This document shows, piece by piece, positions 17,932 to 53,286 of a DNA stretch of 64,000 nucleotides. A model generated the notes under the pieces. That model was not told the origin of the DNA and ran no database searches. It saw only the letters and a list, made by a program, of their open reading frames with translations. Source of the DNA: Blastocatellia bacterium (GTDB lineage: Bacteria > Acidobacteriota > Blastocatellia > UBA7656); the NCBI GenBank assembly GCA_963728545.1, contig CAVSKO010000002.1, forward strand, positions 358,874 through 422,873, read 5' to 3'. Positions within the stretch are counted from its first letter, which is position 1, and the number at the start of each line of letters is the position of its first letter. Position numbers and translations under genes: made by a program.

Positions 17932-19899
17932 GTGGCTGTAATGTTGAGACTCAAAACATCTCACCGCAGAGACACAGAGAGCACAGAGGGGGCGCAGAGA
18001 AAACCAACCTCTGCTCTGCGCCCCCTCTGTGCTCTCTGTGTCTCTGCGGTGAGTCTTCTTGTAATAACCTTTTCTACGATTATCGCTGGTGCGCAGACCG
18101 CCGAAGAGTTCCGGGCGGAATTTCATCAGACGTATCCTCTCGCCGCGACAGGGCGGATCAACGTGAAGAATGTTTCGGGCGCTGTCCGCATCATCGCGTG
18201 GGACCGCAACGAGGTAAAGCTGGATGCAGTAAAGACTGCGCAGTCGAAAGAGAGTCTCGACGAAGCGGAGATCAAAGTAGAAGCCACCGCAAACGCCATT
18301 CAAATCCGTACCAGCTATCCTAATGATTGTTGCTTTTACTCGGAGGAGTGCTGCGAGAAGCGGTTTTATAGAAGCCGCGAATCCCGGCTCGCCTCGGTCG
18401 AATATAGCCTGATGGTCCCGCGAAATGCTCGCTTGGAATCCGTCGAAGTCATAAAGGGCAACGTGAAGATTGACGGCCTTTCAGGCTCTATCAATGCTTC
18501 CACGGTCATCGGCGAGGTTGACGCAAAACTTAATCGGCTCGCAGATTCTAATTCGATCACTTTAAGCTCGCTTACGGGCGGCATTCTTTTAACCATTCCT
18601 TCTGACTCGCACGCCATTGTGATCGCGCGGTCGCTTTCCAGCGAAATAACTAATGATTTCGGGCTGACGATAAATCGCGGGGAGTTCATCGGTCGCAACA
18701 TCGCGGGCCGACTCGGACGAGGCGGCGCGCGAGTGACGCTCGATAATATCACGGGCACTATCGCCGTCCGCCGCCTTTCGGACGGGCGCACGCCGAGCGC
18801 CGCGACGAACGTCAATCCTCAAACGGTGAGAGGCGAGACAGAGGCTAACCAGACTCTCGCTCGCCGCATAGTCGCGAGGGCGCGGCAACAGGCTCAACAG
18901 GCCGTCAACAATTCGGTCGATATTTCTCAAGCAATGCGCGATGTGCGGCGCGAGGTCGCTCGCGCGATGCGCGAAAGCTTGCCGATAGCCATCAGCATAG
19001 CAGTGCCGCAGATAGTCATAACTCCTGCGCCGGAAGCTAGAGTGCAGCCGCCTCGCGCTACTCGTGCGCCTCGCCCACCTCGCCCACCACGCTCGACACC
19101 ACCGGAAGCTCCGTCAACGCCGTCCCCGACGCCGACTCCAACAGCGCCTCGTGCCGAGCCGATCTATTTTAGAGTTAACGAGACGGAATCGAAATCTTTT
19201 ACCTTGAGCGGTGTCAGTCGTATCAACCTCGACACCTTCGACGGCCCGATAACGGTTCGCGCCTGGGACAAACAAGAGGTGTTGATAACGGCTACGAAAA
19301 AAGCCCGCGATGAAGAGGCGATGCGCAGTGCGCGAGTTCGGTTCGAGCAGCGCGCGGGAGAGGTCGTGGCAATTGCCCGATTCGATGATCCGGCAGGCGA
19401 GCGCGATAGCGCGGATGCCCAGGTCCATCTCGACGCATTCGTTCCGCGAAAAGCAAATCTCCGCCTCGCGACGAGCGACGGCAGGCTCTTTGTCGAAGGC
19501 GTGTCGGGCGAAATGGAACTGCGCACCGATGATGGAGAGATACGAGTAGCAAACGGGGCGGGCCGTCTGCGCGCCAACACAAGCGACGGCCAGGTTCAGG
19601 TCACGAAATTCAACGGCGACGTCGACGCTCGGACAAATGACGGGCAGATACTGTTGGAGGGACGTTTCAATTCTCTGAGCGCGCGAACGGGCGACGGAAC
19701 CATAACACTATCTCTTCCGGCAAGCTCTAACGCGACGATAGAGACTGCCGCCGAATCGATCATCATAGACGGTCTCAGAGTGACTGAAGAGGGCGATTCT
19801 GCGAGCCGGTTGAGACGTTGGAAAGTAGGCGCGGGCGGGACGGTCTTTTCGCTTCGCACAGGAGACGGGCGAATCGTGTTGCGCCGGTCGGGCGCATGA
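17932..19899 (+). CDS. two-module DUF4097 repeat protein with Pro/Thr-rich linker (start uncertain; 5' end overlaps palindromic repeat copy A)
   Basis: Two DUF4097-like repeat regions separated by PPRATRAPRPPRPPRSTPPEAPSTPSPTPTPTAPR. Confidence 0.65.
   Translation: MAVMLRLKTSHRRDTESTEGAQRKPTSALRPLCALCVSAVSLLVITFSTIIAGAQTAEEFRAEFHQTYPLAATGRINVKNVSGAVRIIAWDRNEVKLDAVKTAQSKESLDEAEIKVEATANAIQIRTSYPNDCCFYSEECCEKRFYRSRESRLASVEYSLMVPRNARLESVEVIKGNVKIDGLSGSINASTVIGEVDAKLNRLADSNSITLSSLTGGILLTIPSDSHAIVIARSLSSEITNDFGLTINRGEFIGRNIAGRLGRGGARVTLDNITGTIAVRRLSDGRTPSAATNVNPQTVRGETEANQTLARRIVARARQQAQQAVNNSVDISQAMRDVRREVARAMRESLPIAISIAVPQIVITPAPEARVQPPRATRAPRPPRPPRSTPPEAPSTPSPTPTPTAPRAEPIYFRVNETESKSFTLSGVSRINLDTFDGPITVRAWDKQEVLITATKKARDEEAMRSARVRFEQRAGEVVAIARFDDPAGERDSADAQVHLDAFVPRKANLRLATSDGRLFVEGVSGEMELRTDDGEIRVANGAGRLRANTSDGQVQVTKFNGDVDARTNDGQILLEGRFNSLSARTGDGTITLSLPASSNATIETAAESIIIDGLRVTEEGDSASRLRRWKVGAGGTVFSLRTGDGRIVLRRSGA
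17951..18060. repeat. palindromic intergenic repeat, copy A (~40-bp arms ctcaccgcagagacacagagagcacagagggggcgcagag / reverse complement, loop aaaaccaacc)
   Basis: Near-perfect inverted repeat read directly; homologous copies at ~41899..41992 and ~53182..53286. Confidence 0.8.
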
Positions 19900-20224
19900 C
19901 AGAAAGATCGCTTTTCTTGTTAACGGATCGTCACGGGGTCGCGTCTTAAAAAGTGGAGTTGGGCGCAAAAACGAATAGTCGCAGGGTCGGGTAATCTGAA
20001 ACTGACATCAAGTTTTTATGACTCGCGGGCGCTTTTACTTTTAAAGGCCGCGCCCGAAAAGATGGGGCTTGCGCGTGAGCCTGAAAGAGATTCAAAAAAA
20101 TAATGTTTATTCAAACAAATGGAACATTTATCCGCGCTCGCTCGTCTAAAAAAAAGGCACTTTTGATGCTCTCATTCAATAATTAATTTGAGAAGGCGCG
20201 GATCGGATAAGCAGTTGGGGTTCA

Positions 20225-22708
20225 GTGGAGTTGGTTATGATTAAATGTATAGTGGTGACTTTTGCATTGGTGCTTTGCCTGCTGGCGGTTAACACACAGG
20301 CTGCACAGCAGGATGCAGCAGCTTCGAATGGTTCATCTAATGCAGCAAAACCCGCCGACCCAAAACACGTAACAGTTCCCCCCGAAAAAGCGAACCCCGT
20401 AACGATACCTAAATTTGATAAACCGCCCGTAATCAACGGCAAGCTCGATGATGAGGTGTGGAAGACGGCGGTTGTGCTAAAGAATTTTTATCAAGTACAG
20501 CCGGGCGATAACATAGCCCCATCGAAACCCGCCGAAGTCCTTCTCGGATACGACAGCAAGACCTGGTATATAGCTTTCCGCTGCCCGGACGAGCCGGGCA
20601 AGGTTCGCGCTACGGTTCCGAAGCGCGATAACATCTGGGAAGACGACAACGTCGGGATGTTTATTGACACCTTTAACGATAAGCGCAAAGCGTACGCTCT
20701 TTTTTTTAATCCCATTGGTATTCAAGCCGACGGCACGCTGACAGAGACAAACGAAGATTACAGCCTCGATATAGTTATGGAGTCGAAAGGCGTAGTGAAC
20801 GAAGACGGGTACACCGTCGAGATTGCTATTCCTTTCAAATCGCTCAGGTATGAAGCGGGCAAAGGCAAGCTCTGGGGCGCTCACTTTTTCCGCCGCATCA
20901 AGCGTTTCAACAACGAGCTGAATTCATGGATGCCGCTCGACCGCAGCAAGTCGAGCTGGATAGCGCAAGAGGGGCACCTCGCCGGGTTGGAAGGCATTAC
21001 AACCGAGCGGCAGCTTGAGCTCATACCGACGCTGACCGTTTCGCAATCGAGCCGTAGAGTGAGCACGCTTTCGGTGGGTGCGATCAATGCCAATCCGTTT
21101 ATCGTAGACCCCGGTCGCATGGTCAACAGCCCGTCGAACCTCGACCCAGGTCTTTCGGTTAAGCTCGGCATAACGCCGAACGTGACGCTAGATTTTGCGG
21201 CCAACCCCGACTTCGCTCAGGTCGAAGCCGATCAACCCGTCATAACGGCCAATCAACGCTTCCCGATATTCTTCGCCGAAAAGCGGCCCTTCTTTCTTGA
21301 AGGCATAGACATTTTTCAGACGACGATTGCTGCCGTTCACACGCGGGCGATAGTCGACCCGGACTATGCGGCAAAGCTGACGGGGAAAATCGGGAAAAAC
21401 ACTTTCGGGTTTCTGGCGGCTTCCGACAACGCGCCGGGCAATTTTAGCGAGGATGAGATAAATGACCCTGAAATCTTTCCTGACATAGAGAGATTCATCG
21501 ACAAGAACGCTTATATCGGCGTGTTGAGGCTGAAGCGAGACGTAGGAAAAGAATCGAGCGTGGGTTTTCTGGCGACGAGCTATAACTTTATTGAACGCCA
21601 TAACCAGCTTGCGGGCTTCGACGGGCGGTTCAAGCTCGACAAGCAGACCGTTTTCTCTTTCCAGGTGCTTGGCACTACGACCCGCAGCTACTTCTACGAG
21701 CCGGAGATTGACCAGAGCATTTATAGGACGGGGAACGGCCTGGTCTACTACGCGGGCCTCGATAAAACGGGTCGCAACTTCGGCTATTACGCTGAAGTGC
21801 TGGGGCGGACGCGAGACTATCGCGCAGACGTAGGCTTTACGCGGCGCACAAACACAAACAGCGGTTTTCTCTTCATGCGCTATAACAATGACGCGAAGCC
21901 GAAGGCGAAACTCATCTCGTGGCGCGTGTCGAATGCAGCCGGCGTGAATTACGATTTCCAGGGCCGTATGCAAAACTGGAACAATGAATCTCAATTGCAG
22001 ATCAGGGTTCCCGGCAATACTTATCTCGGATTCGGCGTTGAAGAAGGCTACGAGAAATTGATTGAAGAAGAGTTCGGCCCCCTGCGCACGGCGACACAAC
22101 TCGGGGCTTTCTTTGGGCCGGATTCGGAGCGTTCGGCGCACCGCAAATCGCTCTACTGGTATGTCGAGACAGCGCCGAGCAAGAAGTATTCGATATTTGT
22201 CTTCACGTCGAGAAACTGGGGGGCGCTTGACCTGGACTTCGGCGGCGGGCCTCGGTTCCCGCGCGTCAGCCCCGCTGCTTTAGTCGATCCCGATGCGCGG
22301 CTCGATCCCGGAGCAGGCAATACATGGTTTGTTGACGGGATCGTCACTTACAAGCCTATCAACGCTTTGAGCACATCGCTCGGCTTTACAAAGAGCAGGC
22401 TTGTGAGAAGTGACACTGCGCTGCTGGCGTTTGACGACAACATCTTTTCGTGGCGCACGACCTACCAGTTTACGCGGTTCACCTTCTTGAGGGCGCGGCT
22501 CGATTATGACACGCTCGCATCAAGCGTTCGCGGGCAGTATCTGTTCGGATGGACGCCGAATCCGGGAACGTCGTTTTACGTGGGCTATAACGATGACCTG
22601 AGCTATAACGGGTTTGACCAGTTCACGGGGAATTCTTTGCCGGGCTTCCGGCGAAACAACAGGACGTTTTTTATAAAGACCTCCTACCTGTTCCGCCGCA
22701 GCCTTTAA
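20225..22708 (+). CDS. CBM9-like / DUF5916 domain protein (predicted outer-membrane or secreted), paralog 1
   Basis: Signal peptide; N-terminal carbohydrate-binding family 9-like block (KFDKPPVINGKLDDEVWK...FYQVQPGDN); long beta-rich C-terminal region ending ...FFIKTSYLFRRSL. Confidence 0.65.
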   Translation: MELVMIKCIVVTFALVLCLLAVNTQAAQQDAAASNGSSNAAKPADPKHVTVPPEKANPVTIPKFDKPPVINGKLDDEVWKTAVVLKNFYQVQPGDNIAPSKPAEVLLGYDSKTWYIAFRCPDEPGKVRATVPKRDNIWEDDNVGMFIDTFNDKRKAYALFFNPIGIQADGTLTETNEDYSLDIVMESKGVVNEDGYTVEIAIPFKSLRYEAGKGKLWGAHFFRRIKRFNNELNSWMPLDRSKSSWIAQEGHLAGLEGITTERQLELIPTLTVSQSSRRVSTLSVGAINANPFIVDPGRMVNSPSNLDPGLSVKLGITPNVTLDFAANPDFAQVEADQPVITANQRFPIFFAEKRPFFLEGIDIFQTTIAAVHTRAIVDPDYAAKLTGKIGKNTFGFLAASDNAPGNFSEDEINDPEIFPDIERFIDKNAYIGVLRLKRDVGKESSVGFLATSYNFIERHNQLAGFDGRFKLDKQTVFSFQVLGTTTRSYFYEPEIDQSIYRTGNGLVYYAGLDKTGRNFGYYAEVLGRTRDYRADVGFTRRTNTNSGFLFMRYNNDAKPKAKLISWRVSNAAGVNYDFQGRMQNWNNESQLQIRVPGNTYLGFGVEEGYEKLIEEEFGPLRTATQLGAFFGPDSERSAHRKSLYWYVETAPSKKYSIFVFTSRNWGALDLDFGGGPRFPRVSPAALVDPDARLDPGAGNTWFVDGIVTYKPINALSTSLGFTKSRLVRSDTALLAFDDNIFSWRTTYQFTRFTFLRARLDYDTLASSVRGQYLFGWTPNPGTSFYVGYNDDLSYNGFDQFTGNSLPGFRRNNRTFFIKTSYLFRRSL

Positions 22709-22717
22709 TTAGTGGTC

Positions 22718-22770
22718 GGGGCTTAGAGGCTAGAGATCAAAGATCAGGGACTCGCCTCTAAGCTCTGACC
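22718..22770 (+). terminator. imperfect 17-bp stem-loop after DUF5916 paralog 1
   Basis: ggtcggggcttagaggc ... gcctctaagctctgacc read directly; no clear T-run. Confidence 0.35.
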
Positions 22771-22939
22771 CATATAACGCGCCGTAGTTCATTGTAGTTT
22801 ATCGGATGGCCAACGGCAGCAAACGGACCTTAAAGATTGTGATTGAATTATAAATCTGTGGCAGGGTTGATTAATCGCAATCGAGACAGGCTTAATAATT
22901 ATTTAGACGGACCGACGCCCCTTTAATTCGAGAGTAAGA

Positions 22940-25411
22940 ATGTTCGTTATGAAATTTATATCCGCTCTATTTGTGCTCGCCGTATGCGCGATTTCGCTTT
23001 GTGCGCAGACTCAACCGATAGAATCTTCTGTTGCGACCGGCACGACCTCTGCCGCGAAGCCCGCCGGGCCGAAATCCGTCACGGTGCCGCCCGAAAAGGC
23101 GCAACCCGTCAGCGTCGTCCGCTTTGAAAAACCGCCCGTGATTGACGGCAAGCTCGATGAAGAAGTCTGGAAGCAGGCGGCCATGCTAAAAGACTTCTAC
23201 CAGACACAGCCCGGCGACAACATCGCGCCGTCGCAACGCACAGAGGTTCTACTCGGCTATGACAGCAAATTTCTTTACGTCGCGTTTAAAGCCTACGATG
23301 AAGCGGGCAAGGTGCGCGCGACCGTGGCAAAGCGCGACGCCGTCTTTGACGACGACAACGTGCGAATCGTGCTCGACACGTTCGACGACAAGCGCAAGGC
23401 TTACGTATTTGTCTTCAACCCCTTTGGCGTCCAGGCCGACGGCATACTGACCGAAGGGCGCGGCGAAGATTACAGCGTCAATGTCGTGATGGAGTCGAAG
23501 GGCATAGTGACCGAAGACGGCTATTTCGTAGAGATCGCGATCCCTTTCAAATCCCTCCGCTACACTGCCGGTAAAGACAAACACTGGGGCGTCCACCTGT
23601 TCCGCCGAATCAAGCGGTTCGACAACGAGCTTGATTCGTGGATGCCGATCTCGCGCGATATATCGGGCCTGCTGAACCAGGAAGGCCGAATCACGGGCCT
23701 TGAAAACATCGCCTCGGAGCGCACGCTTGAAATTATTCCGACCTTCACCATTTCAGAGACCGGAAAGAGAATCGCTGCCCAGGCTTCGGTTAACGATCCG
23801 ATGCTTGCCGACCGGGGCCGCTTTTTAAACAGGCCCGCCGAATTTGACCCCGGTGTGAACGTCAAGCTGGGGATCACTCAAAGCGTGATACTGGATTTTG
23901 CCGCCAACCCCGACTTCGCTCAGGTCGAAGCCGATCAACCCGTCATAACGGCCAATCAACGCTTCCCGATATTCTTCGCCGAAAAGCGGCCCTTCTTCCT
24001 TGAAGGCATAGACATTTTTCAAACGCCGCTGACCGCAGTCCACACGCGGGCGATAGTCGACCCGGACTATGCGGCAAAGCTGACGGGCAAAGTTGGCCGC
24101 AACACGTTCGGCATGATTCTCGCGTCGGACAACGCGCCAGGCAACTACAGCGAAGAGGAGCGGACGAACCCGGATATCTTTCCGCGCATCGAAAGATTCC
24201 TCGACAAGAATGCTTATATCGGCGTGCTCCGCGTGAAGCACGATGTCGGGAAAGAGTCGAGCATAGGGCTGATAGGCACGAGTTATAACTTCATTGAAAA
24301 GCACAGCCACCTCGCAGGCATCAACGGTCGTTTCAAGGTAGATAAGCAGACGACTTTCAACTTCCAGGTGCTTGGCACGAATTCGCGCGCCTTCTTTTAT
24401 GAGCCTGCCGAGGATAAGAGTATTTACAGGACAGGAAACGGGTTTGCTTACAACGCGGCCTATTTTTACGGAGGCCGGAACTTCAGTTGGGAGCTGTACG
24501 GCGAGGGGCAGACGCAAGATTATCGCGCCGAAGTGGGGTTTAATTCGAGAACGAATACAAACTTCAACAGCGTTTTTCTGGGCTACAACTCGACGCCCAA
24601 GCCGAAAGCTACGCTGATCTCGTATCACGTGCACAACTTCACGCACATCGATTACGACTTTCAAGGCCGCATGCAAATCTGGGAAAGCGAGTTCGCCGCC
24701 GAGCTTGGCTTGAGCCGGCAGACCTATGTAGGGGGTGGATACGAGCGGGCTTATGAACGAGTTTTTGAGGAAGAGTTCGGAGCAATTCGAACGGCGACCA
24801 GGACGGGCGCATTCATAGGCGATGATTCGGAGCGTTCATCGAACAAGCATCACTTTTTCCTCTGGGGCGGGACAAAGCCAAGCAAAAAATTCGGCTCCGA
24901 TTTCAGGGTCGTTTACCGCGTGGGCCATTTCGATTATGACTTCGGCGCGGGTCGCCGGTTCCCGCGAGTAAGCCCGGCCGCGCTCGTTGACCCTGATGCG
25001 GCATTTGACCCGGGTCGCGGCGGCCTTTTCGAGTTCAGAGCGAACGTGTTCTATCAACCTTCTGACGCTTTGAACACGACATTCAGTTACACGAAAAACC
25101 GTTTGACTCGTTACGACACAGACCGCGTGGCTTTCGACGACAATATCTTTTCTTCGCGCACGACTTACCAGTTCACCAGATTTTTGTTCGCGCGCGCGCG
25201 GTTGGATTACCTGACGCTCAGCTCAAGGGTGCGCGGGCAATACCTGATCGGGTGGACGCCGAATCCGGGAACGTCGTTTTACGTAGGCTATAACGACGAT
25301 ATGAATTACAACGGCTTCAGCCCGTTCACAGGGACTAGAGAGGACGGAATGCGACTCAACAGTCGCACGTTCTTTATAAAGACCTCTTACCTGTTCCGCC
25401 GTAGCTTGTAG
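22940..25411 (+). CDS. CBM9-like / DUF5916 domain protein, paralog 2
   Basis: ~65-70% aa identity to 20225..22708 over full length; identical C-terminus YLFRRSL. Confidence 0.65.
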   Translation: MFVMKFISALFVLAVCAISLCAQTQPIESSVATGTTSAAKPAGPKSVTVPPEKAQPVSVVRFEKPPVIDGKLDEEVWKQAAMLKDFYQTQPGDNIAPSQRTEVLLGYDSKFLYVAFKAYDEAGKVRATVAKRDAVFDDDNVRIVLDTFDDKRKAYVFVFNPFGVQADGILTEGRGEDYSVNVVMESKGIVTEDGYFVEIAIPFKSLRYTAGKDKHWGVHLFRRIKRFDNELDSWMPISRDISGLLNQEGRITGLENIASERTLEIIPTFTISETGKRIAAQASVNDPMLADRGRFLNRPAEFDPGVNVKLGITQSVILDFAANPDFAQVEADQPVITANQRFPIFFAEKRPFFLEGIDIFQTPLTAVHTRAIVDPDYAAKLTGKVGRNTFGMILASDNAPGNYSEEERTNPDIFPRIERFLDKNAYIGVLRVKHDVGKESSIGLIGTSYNFIEKHSHLAGINGRFKVDKQTTFNFQVLGTNSRAFFYEPAEDKSIYRTGNGFAYNAAYFYGGRNFSWELYGEGQTQDYRAEVGFNSRTNTNFNSVFLGYNSTPKPKATLISYHVHNFTHIDYDFQGRMQIWESEFAAELGLSRQTYVGGGYERAYERVFEEEFGAIRTATRTGAFIGDDSERSSNKHHFFLWGGTKPSKKFGSDFRVVYRVGHFDYDFGAGRRFPRVSPAALVDPDAAFDPGRGGLFEFRANVFYQPSDALNTTFSYTKNRLTRYDTDRVAFDDNIFSSRTTYQFTRFLFARARLDYLTLSSRVRGQYLIGWTPNPGTSFYVGYNDDMNYNGFSPFTGTREDGMRLNSRTFFIKTSYLFRRSL

Positions 25412-25610
25412 AGGCGCAGGGCCGTTTTATGTCAACTTTTTTGCATTTCGTGAAACTTTCCTTCGGCTTATGGCACTGACTGTGTGTCAGGCAAGATCGT
25501 CTTGCGCCTACCATCTCCCCGCTCGCGAGGCGCGAGGCGAATTATTTGGAACTTGAGCGCAGCAGTGGGCGAATAATTACCTGACGATCACTCAAAAAAC
25601 GAAGGAGGAC

Positions 25611-26610
25611 TTGAACGTCATGAAGCGAGTTTTATTACTCTCATTAGCCTTTTCGCTGTCTTGCGCCTCAGTTGGTTTGGCAGCTACAGACCGGTCGCAA
25701 GAAGCGACAACTACGGAAGCTCCTGTAGCAGTCGTCGCGGCGCAGGAACGGGGCAGCTATCTGGGCGTAGGTCTCGACGAGGTGATGCCGGAGACTGTCG
25801 CTCGGCTGAAGCTAAAGGCAGAGCGGGGGGCGGTTGTAATAGATGTCGTGGCCGACAGCCCCGCGGCAAAAGCAGGTCTTCAAAGAGATGACGTAATCGT
25901 CAGGTGGGACGGCGAGCAGATTGAGAGCGCCATACAGCTTTCGCGATTGAGGCGCGAAACTCCTGTTGGCCGAACCGTGCGGCTCGGCATCGTCCGCGAC
26001 GGGCGCGAGATGGAAGTGAGCGTGCAACTCGGAGAAAGACCTGAGCGGGTTCTCAAGAATCAGACCCAGAGTAGTCACGCCGCGCCCGGCTCGGACTCGT
26101 TTCATCAGGCCGGAAAGGGCGCCGAGAGCAAGGACGATCATTCGCGGTCCTATAGGGATGCAGATGCTCAGTCTCACGCCGCAGATGGCCGAATACTTCG
26201 GCCTTGGGCAGCGGTCGGGCGCGCTGGTTACCTGGGTGGATCAGGATTCTACGGCAGCGAAGGCGGGGCTTAAAGCGGGAGACGTGATTCTCTCGATCAG
26301 CGGCGAGACGGTCGACGGCCCCAGTAATGCCTGGCGCACGCTCCGTCAAAAGGCGGGCGAGACGGTCGAGATAAAAGTGATGCGCGACCGAAAAGAACAG
26401 AGCCTCACCGTGACGCTTGAAAAGAGCACGGCGACCTCGTGGATAATCGAGCCGGGCGACATCAATATATCTATTCCGGTCGCGCCGATTGCTGTTCCGA
26501 TGCCGCACATCGAATTGCCGGCTCTGCCCGCGATGCCTGTAATGCCAAAGATCCACATAGCTCCGATAGCGGTGCCGTTCGTGCGCATGACTTATAGGAT
26601 TTTGATCTAA
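25611..26610 (+). pseudogene. secreted tandem-PDZ protein, apparently frameshifted between ~26041 and 26157 (ORFs 25611..26273 and 26158..26610)
   Basis: Signal peptide + PDZ 1 (GVGLDEV...VVADSPAAKAGLQRDDVIV) in frame 3; PDZ 2 (LTPQMAEYFGL...DQDSTAAKAGLKAGDVILSISGETV) in frame 1; second ORF would start inside a PDZ fold. Confidence 0.5.
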
Positions 26611-53181: not shown

Positions 53182-53286
53182 GATACATCTCACCGCCGCA
53201 GAGACACAGAGGGGGCGCAGAGAAAACCATATTCTGCTCTGCGCCCGCTCTGTGTTCTCTGTGTCTCTGCGGTGAATCTTCTTGTT
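53182..53286. repeat. palindromic intergenic repeat, copy D
   Basis: catctcaccgccgcagagacacagagggggcgcagag aaaaccatat tctgctctgcgcccgctctgtgttctctgtgtctctgcggtgaatctt; between convergent genes. Confidence 0.8.

Follow-up and report, generated by a model that had tools for sequence, protein, structure and literature searches.

Recent, recurrent gene conversion as the probable source of a short identity tract in tandem DUF5916 paralogues of a Blastocatellia bacterium

Gene conversion between paralogous genes is well established in bacteria, in particular for tufA/tufB of Salmonella and E. coli, for rRNA operons and for outer-membrane protein families of Neisseria and Helicobacter. The opa and pil families of Neisseria exemplify conversion among paralogues that encode outer-membrane proteins. 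Recurrent concerted evolution in prokaryotes has been surveyed (PMC6053082), and conversion between babA and babB of Helicobacter pylori is mentioned in PMC5483490. In mammals, segment-limited conversion between the tandem paralogues TLR1 and TLR6 spares the specificity regions (PMC2077338). The mosaic divergence of tandem paralogues that undergo interlocus gene conversion has also been modelled (bioRxiv 10.1101/2025.10.29.685298). Here we describe a short tract of nearly identical DNA shared by two otherwise diverged neighbouring genes, denoted A and B, in a 64,000-nucleotide stretch of a Blastocatellia bacterium (contig CAVSKO010000002.1 of assembly GCA_963728545.1, positions 358,874 to 422,873 of the forward strand). 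This stretch is hereafter called the window, and all coordinates refer to it unless stated otherwise. Both genes encode proteins with a CBM9-like domain followed by a DUF5916 beta-barrel.

The best explanation of the tract, to which we assign a probability of about 0.9, is recent gene conversion between A and B, two old tandem duplicates, by a process that recurs in their clade. As in the concerted evolution of tuf genes and the cases surveyed in PMC6053082, the converted stretch makes paralogues of one genome closer to each other than to their orthologues, synonymous positions have become homogenized and events recur in separate lineages. Whereas tuf and the long-lasting cases of that survey are homogenized essentially throughout, conversion here has affected only ~170-350 nt of genes 2.5 kb long, which have otherwise diverged to saturation (synonymous divergence, dS, of ~2). 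The mosaic pattern of identity, in which a conserved segment is converted whereas paralogue-specific parts escape, resembles that of TLR1/TLR6 and of the tandem-paralogue model; those systems are eukaryotic, whereas A and B belong to an uncharacterized, predicted outer-membrane family of an uncultured Acidobacterium. With babA/babB and opa/pil, the locus shares recombination between (predicted) outer-membrane protein paralogues of the same genome. However, in those families variable, surface-exposed parts are diversified for antigenic or adhesive variation, whereas in A and B a conserved core motif is homogenized, with no sign of a variation function. The case is clean but ordinary gene conversion: events of this kind are known, the gene family is new, and no new mechanism is revealed. 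It is a well-controlled instance of conversion in short patches between tandem duplicates of long standing, in a soil Acidobacterium that is uncultured, with independent replicates in sister lineages and a spared paralogue-specific island within the tract.

Over their whole lengths, A and B are 62% identical at the protein level and 66% identical at the DNA level, and the two copies are in register at a distance of 2703 nt. Against this background, the tract stands out: a 95-mer occurs exactly twice in the window, at 21200 and 23903, and a 47-mer occurs exactly twice, at 21338 and 24041. The two patches that contain these runs, separated by a short diverged island (Table 1), together show a single difference in 166 nt. 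The initial annotation, which reported a near-identical DNA tract inside diverged paralogues, is thus confirmed on this point. Its coordinates for gene A (21195-21392) have their partner at 23898-24095, so those given for gene B (23895-24092) are off by 3 nt.

The longest identical run of 95 nt compares with a maximum of 48 nt in 10,000 shuffles of codon columns. Among synonymous-informative codons, defined as positions at which A and B specify the same degenerate amino acid, 31 consecutive codons are identical between 21200 and 21292 (p ~2e-5 given a background identity of 0.52-0.55), and in the tract as a whole 54 of 60 are identical, compared with 221 of 436 elsewhere (Fisher p=1.3e-9). The dS between the two window genes, estimated with the NG86 method, is 0.185 in the tract vs 1.97 in the rest. 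Stretches outside the tract region with at least 80% amino acid identity mostly show synonymous codon identity of 0.43-0.67, with the exception of C-terminal windows at 22487-22502 (0.71-0.76); because most of the other conserved stretches show no such rise, amino acid conservation alone does not produce the effect seen in the tract. A sliding-window check found no comparable identity elsewhere in the two genes.

We also observe a second, weaker rise of A-B identity near the 3' ends of the genes (22550-22581 / 25253-25284 and 22655-22707 / 25358-25410), with a 32-nt identical run and synonymous identity that reaches 0.76 at 22502. The last ~50 nt are unusually alike between orthologues and across paralogue types elsewhere as well (20-35-nt runs within 22664-22704). 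This rise could be an old conversion patch or could reflect constraint on the codons of the C-terminal strand.

Comparison with orthologues separates conversion from constraint. A protein search identified three close relatives of A with 89%, 84% and 82% identity, which lie on the contigs L001 (the 89% relative), L002 and L003. L001 carries A only, whereas L002 and L003 carry an A-B tandem in the same neighbourhood as in the window. These three and the window make up the close clade: a scan of GTDB species yielded nothing else closer than 65%, and a scan of metagenome contigs with protein B recovered only distant relatives (<=62%). Within the tract, orthologous pairs show dS of 0.79-1.44 and synonymous codon identity of 0.55-0.67, about the background level, so the synonymous sites there are not constrained. 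Moreover, the window A gene differs from its closest orthologue, A of L001, more in the tract (dS 1.05) than in the rest of the gene (0.48), as expected if the tract of the window gene was overwritten after the two lineages split. The A/B pair of L002 is itself near-identical over the same stretch (synonymous codon identity 0.88 in the tract vs 0.54 in the rest) but with different codons, for example GAC CAG CCT GTC ATT ACC where both window genes have GAT CAA CCC GTC ATA ACG. Neighbour-joining trees and distance matrices computed from third codon positions of the 7 genes from 4 genomes show a corresponding switch, with the tract grouped by genome and the rest of the gene grouped by paralogue type (A with A, B with B). 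Third-position distances in the tract are 0.04 between the two window genes and 0.11 between the two L002 genes, compared with 0.33-0.51 between genomes, and A-vs-B identity in the same segment is ~0.80 across genomes vs 0.94 within the genome. Such a tree switch is the classical signature of gene conversion between paralogues. The tract excess, the tree incongruence, the separate tract of L002 and the elevated dS between the A genes of the window and L001 all bear out the earlier proposal that recent recombination between the paralogues, rather than purifying selection alone, accounts for the identity; the free variation of synonymous sites among orthologues excludes the codon-level constraint that had been named as a possible refutation.

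The direction of transfer was assessed at diagnostic sites, where the A genes of L001 and L003 agree with each other, the B genes of L002 and L003 agree with each other, and the two types differ. Outside the tract, the window A gene is almost uniformly A-type and the window B gene B-type at such sites. Eight diagnostic sites lie within 21199-21316. The window copies differ from each other at 21199, and of the seven sites at which they agree (21202-21316), five are in the B-type state and two in the A-type state. The B-type states in the window A gene include Val-to-Ile and Thr-to-Ala replacements: the A genes of L001 and L003 encode VVTT, whereas every B copy and the A genes of the window and L002 encode VITA. 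Patch 2 contains no diagnostic sites. These few sites suggest that the transfer was mainly from B to A. The event appears to be recent, with an inferred age of a few per cent (roughly 5%) of the window-L001 synonymous divergence, given the single difference in the two patches.

Similar events are found in the sister lineages. In window-A coordinates, the L002 pair is identical at 21188-21270, 21278-21318, 21353-21507 and 21509-21537, and the L003 pair at 21281-21312, 21362-21414, 21417-21486 and 21494-21540. The L002 pair includes runs of 51 and 27 synonymous-identical codons near the tract (p=0.0002), and runs near this position are also significant for L003 (p=0.005) and L023 (p=0.005), with weaker signals in L051 and L020. 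For the direction of the downstream patches of L002 and L003, the window B gene was the sole unconverted B reference. The patch-1 conversions of the window and L002 are independent events, because the A gene of L003 still encodes VVTT and the window is more closely related to L001 than to L002. With similar events that arose separately in L002 and in L003, the stretch is a recurrent conversion hotspot in the clade. The six codons that follow the motif remain paralogue-specific in the window, L002 and L003 alike, T-T-I-A-A-V in A and T-P-L-T-A-V in B. This island may be spared because heteroduplex extension stops at dense mismatches or because selection removes recombinants that lack it; both possibilities fit the data.

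Several considerations weigh against this interpretation or limit its reach. Altogether, 64 within-locus paralogue pairs were tested, of which 38 come from 79 GTDB species loci together with L002, L003 and the window, and 26 from 80 metagenome loci. Only about 4 of the 64 (the window, L002, L003 and L023) reach p<=0.005 near the tract position, the 26 metagenome pairs show no tract at this position, and a few pairs have tracts elsewhere, such as residues 55-85 in L056 and residues 664-690 in L125. Thus, most tandem pairs carry no such tract, and the hotspot is a feature of the clade rather than of the whole family. The direction of transfer depends on only the eight diagnostic sites, and given the two shared A-type states, exchange in both directions or more than one transfer may have taken place. 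Older conversions may have raised the cross-genome A-vs-B identity, which stood in for the unconverted state. Finally, the case against an effect of assembly or polishing is an indirect one, made from the assemblies.

Conversion between A and B probably proceeded as follows. The duplication that gave rise to A and B is old and took place before the lineages of the window, L002 and L003 diverged, and a recent non-reciprocal transfer overwrote ~170 nt in the two patches. The likely mechanism is RecA-type homologous recombination, within a chromosome or between sister chromosomes. The location was probably set by the quality of the substrate, this being the only part of the diverged pair with enough uninterrupted identity, because the baseline A-B identity and the identical runs of at least 17 nt are both highest there. 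Specifically, cross-genome A-vs-B DNA identity peaks at 21182-21540 (0.79-0.81 vs a mean of 0.66), and this segment also holds most of the runs >=17 nt. Strand exchange could start in the motif region and would then probably stall at the 19-nt island with its 8 mismatches; alternatively, selection might purge recombinants that lack the paralogue-specific residues of the island. Each conversion would renew the substrate for further exchange.

The segment concerned is the most conserved part of the protein family. In an alignment of 71 members, residues 323-362 are the most conserved 40-residue window, with a majority-residue fraction of 0.94 vs 0.73 overall, and the alignment with the DUF5916 profile is confined to residues ~300-366, that is, to the tract, which matches profile positions 24-85 of 572. 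The initial annotation considered the encoded motif to be probably functionally central, a view that stands so far as conservation goes and that may be read as a prediction with respect to function itself. In the AlphaFold2 model of A, residues 323-374 form a non-strand segment between barrel strands. We observe that residues 326-354 (window 21212-21298) have a predicted local distance difference test (pLDDT) score below 50, compared with 80-95 for the rest of the barrel, so that the model is least confident where the family is most conserved. The model suggests a loop whose conformation might depend on a partner or on the barrel lumen.

A stronger version of the argument, which we regard as doubtful but worth stating, is that the conserved loop motif is a conversion hotspot shaped by selection, homogenized in at least three lineages with the six-codon island always spared. 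If so, the core loop would have to be the same in both barrels, for instance to serve a common partner or a common gating or plug function, with a paralogue-specific determinant adjoining it, and the conversion map would indicate the specificity residues of an uncharacterized outer-membrane family. The analysis flags residues 323-362 as the invariant DUF5916 core, and residues 363-365 as the most likely A/B-specific determinant. The core and the island residues provide starting points for the study of a widespread, uncharacterized family. A practical caution is that trees and dS estimates for DUF5916 proteins are distorted around residues 317-435.

Among the rival explanations, an artefact of assembly or polishing, in which bubble-popping or mis-mapped reads made segments of the paralogues falsely identical, survives best, although we consider it quite improbable. 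That the related contigs are metagenome assemblies speaks for it, but the same signature, with other codons and other boundaries, is present in two independent assemblies, those of L002 and L003. Furthermore, the 95-nt run is shorter than the final k-mers named for related assemblies (k141), and both copies are resolved in the contig; the tract still contains the 19-nt island; and the B-type amino acid states in the window A gene fit a biological transfer.

Even less probable is constraint at the nucleic acid level, whereby an embedded functional DNA or RNA element, or an antisense gene, would fix the synonymous sites in both copies. Long antisense open reading frames (ORFs) do cover both tracts on the minus strand (21188..22141 and 23825..24676). 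However, this frame is interrupted by 1-4 stop codons in 6 of the 7 genes and is intact only in B of L003, so that it looks like a usual shadow frame. An embedded RNA is contradicted by the lack of any Rfam match at E<=1 over 19800-25700 and by the ordinary fold of the tract (z=-0.71), and an element of either kind by the freedom of orthologues to differ at synonymous tract sites. On these grounds, both an embedded element and an antisense gene were rejected.

A comparably slight probability attaches to an external donor, that is, acquisition of the tract by both copies from an outside allele through homologous recombination after DNA uptake. The two shared A-type synonymous states in a mostly B-type tract could reflect such a third source, but two separate imports of the same fragment would be needed, which is unparsimonious; an exact search with 45 nt of the tract in the metagenome collection found no match; and the same pattern with a different sequence in L002 favours a process within the genome. 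The weakest alternative, that purifying selection on the motif combined with codon bias yields the identity by chance, without recombination, draws on the strong conservation of this segment and on its baseline A-vs-B identity of already ~0.80 but does not survive the permutation tests and the comparison with orthologues, namely the run of 31 identical codons, the synonymous identity of ~0.5 in most other conserved stretches and the gap between cross-genome and within-genome pairs, and retains practically no credibility.

With recent conversion between A and B as the preferred explanation, the features of the two genes are listed in Table 1. The ORF of gene A can be extended to a GTG at 20225, but the ATG at 20237 (MIKC...) agrees with the starts of the orthologues (A of L001 begins with MIKC) and is most likely the true start.

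Table 1. Positions of genes A and B and of the components of the shared tract in the window.
Feature	Coordinates	Strand	Remarks
Gene A	20237..22708	+	Predicted signal peptide, CBM9-like domain, then DUF5916 beta-barrel
Gene B	22940..25411	+	Tandem paralogue of gene A; predicted architecture as in A
Identical run 1	A 21200-21294	+	95 nt; B copy starts at 23903
Single mismatch	A 21295	+	1 nt
Identical run 2	A 21296-21318	+	23 nt
Putative conversion patch 1 in A	21200..21318	+	119 nt, 1 mismatch (21295); encodes ANPDFAQVEADQPVITANQRFPIFFAEKRPFFLEGIDIFQ; mostly B-type states
Putative conversion patch 1 in B	23903..24021	+	Partner of A 21200-21318
Apparently unconverted paralogue-specific island in A	21319..21337	+	19 nt, 8 mismatches vs B; encodes …TTIAAV
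Apparently unconverted paralogue-specific island in B	24022..24040	+	Encodes …TPLTAV
Putative conversion patch 2 in A (identical run 3)	21338..21384	+	47 nt identical to B; encodes HTRAIVDPDYAAKLTG
Putative conversion patch 2 in B	24041..24087	+	Partner of A 21338-21384

Both proteins match the DUF5916 profile (PF19313; 62.7 and 53.3 bits, cut-off 22.6) and the CBM9_1 profile (PF06452; 40.4 and 37.8 bits, cut-off 23.4). Because only profile positions 24-85 of 572 align, these Acidobacterial proteins appear to be distant from the Pfam seed of DUF5916. The AlphaFold2 model of A (mean pLDDT 78, predicted template modelling score 0.71) shows a CBM9-like sandwich and a transmembrane beta-barrel, preceded by a signal peptide. 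A and B are thus predicted to code for secreted proteins of the outer membrane, built from a CBM9-like beta-sandwich at the N-terminus and a large DUF5916 beta-barrel. Searching PDB sequences with the family profile gave no matches, so no solved homologue is detectable by sequence, and among the papers searched none names DUF5916, a family with no known function. The closest database relatives are labelled Blastocatellia or Pyrinomonadaceae (Acidobacteriota).

The neighbourhood of the two genes is conserved. Upstream, it includes genes for an extracytoplasmic function (ECF) sigma factor, a zf-HC2 anti-sigma factor and DUF4097 proteins, and downstream, genes for a PDZ protein and PilB/PilT/PilC. 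In the window, the PDZ gene located 3' of B consists of two overlapping ORFs that lie in different frames, 25611..26273 (220 aa) and 26158..26610 (150 aa), whereas L001-L003 each have one undivided orthologue of 320-363 aa; the split (25611-26610) may represent a frameshift, a pseudogene or a sequencing error.

In L001, which lacks gene B, the window block 22784-25433 is replaced by ~125 nt (L001 8560-8685), and synteny resumes just past the B stop codon. Since L002 and L003, although more distant, both have B, its absence is a clean deletion of one tandem copy in L001. Loss of B by unequal crossover at the tract was considered and rejected: the L001 gene is A-like throughout, and the bounds of the missing block are intergenic.

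Some Pyrinomonadaceae genomes (GTDB species loci L010, L042, L050 and L051) contain three DUF5916/CBM9 genes in tandem, and several copies carry N-terminal extensions (proteins of ~1000-1060 aa). The family is expanding by tandem duplication in the Pyrinomonadaceae lineage.

Finally, a perfect 40-nt inverted repeat with a 14-nt loop (17960-17999 / 18014-18053) is located at the 5' end of the called DUF4097 ORF, and the true start of this gene probably lies downstream of the palindrome. One arm recurs on the minus strand at 53247-53276 with 3 mismatches, and similar palindromes are found at the orthologous place in L001 and L003. This palindrome looks like either a dispersed element resembling repetitive extragenic palindromes (REP) or miniature inverted-repeat transposable elements (MITE), or a strong terminator.

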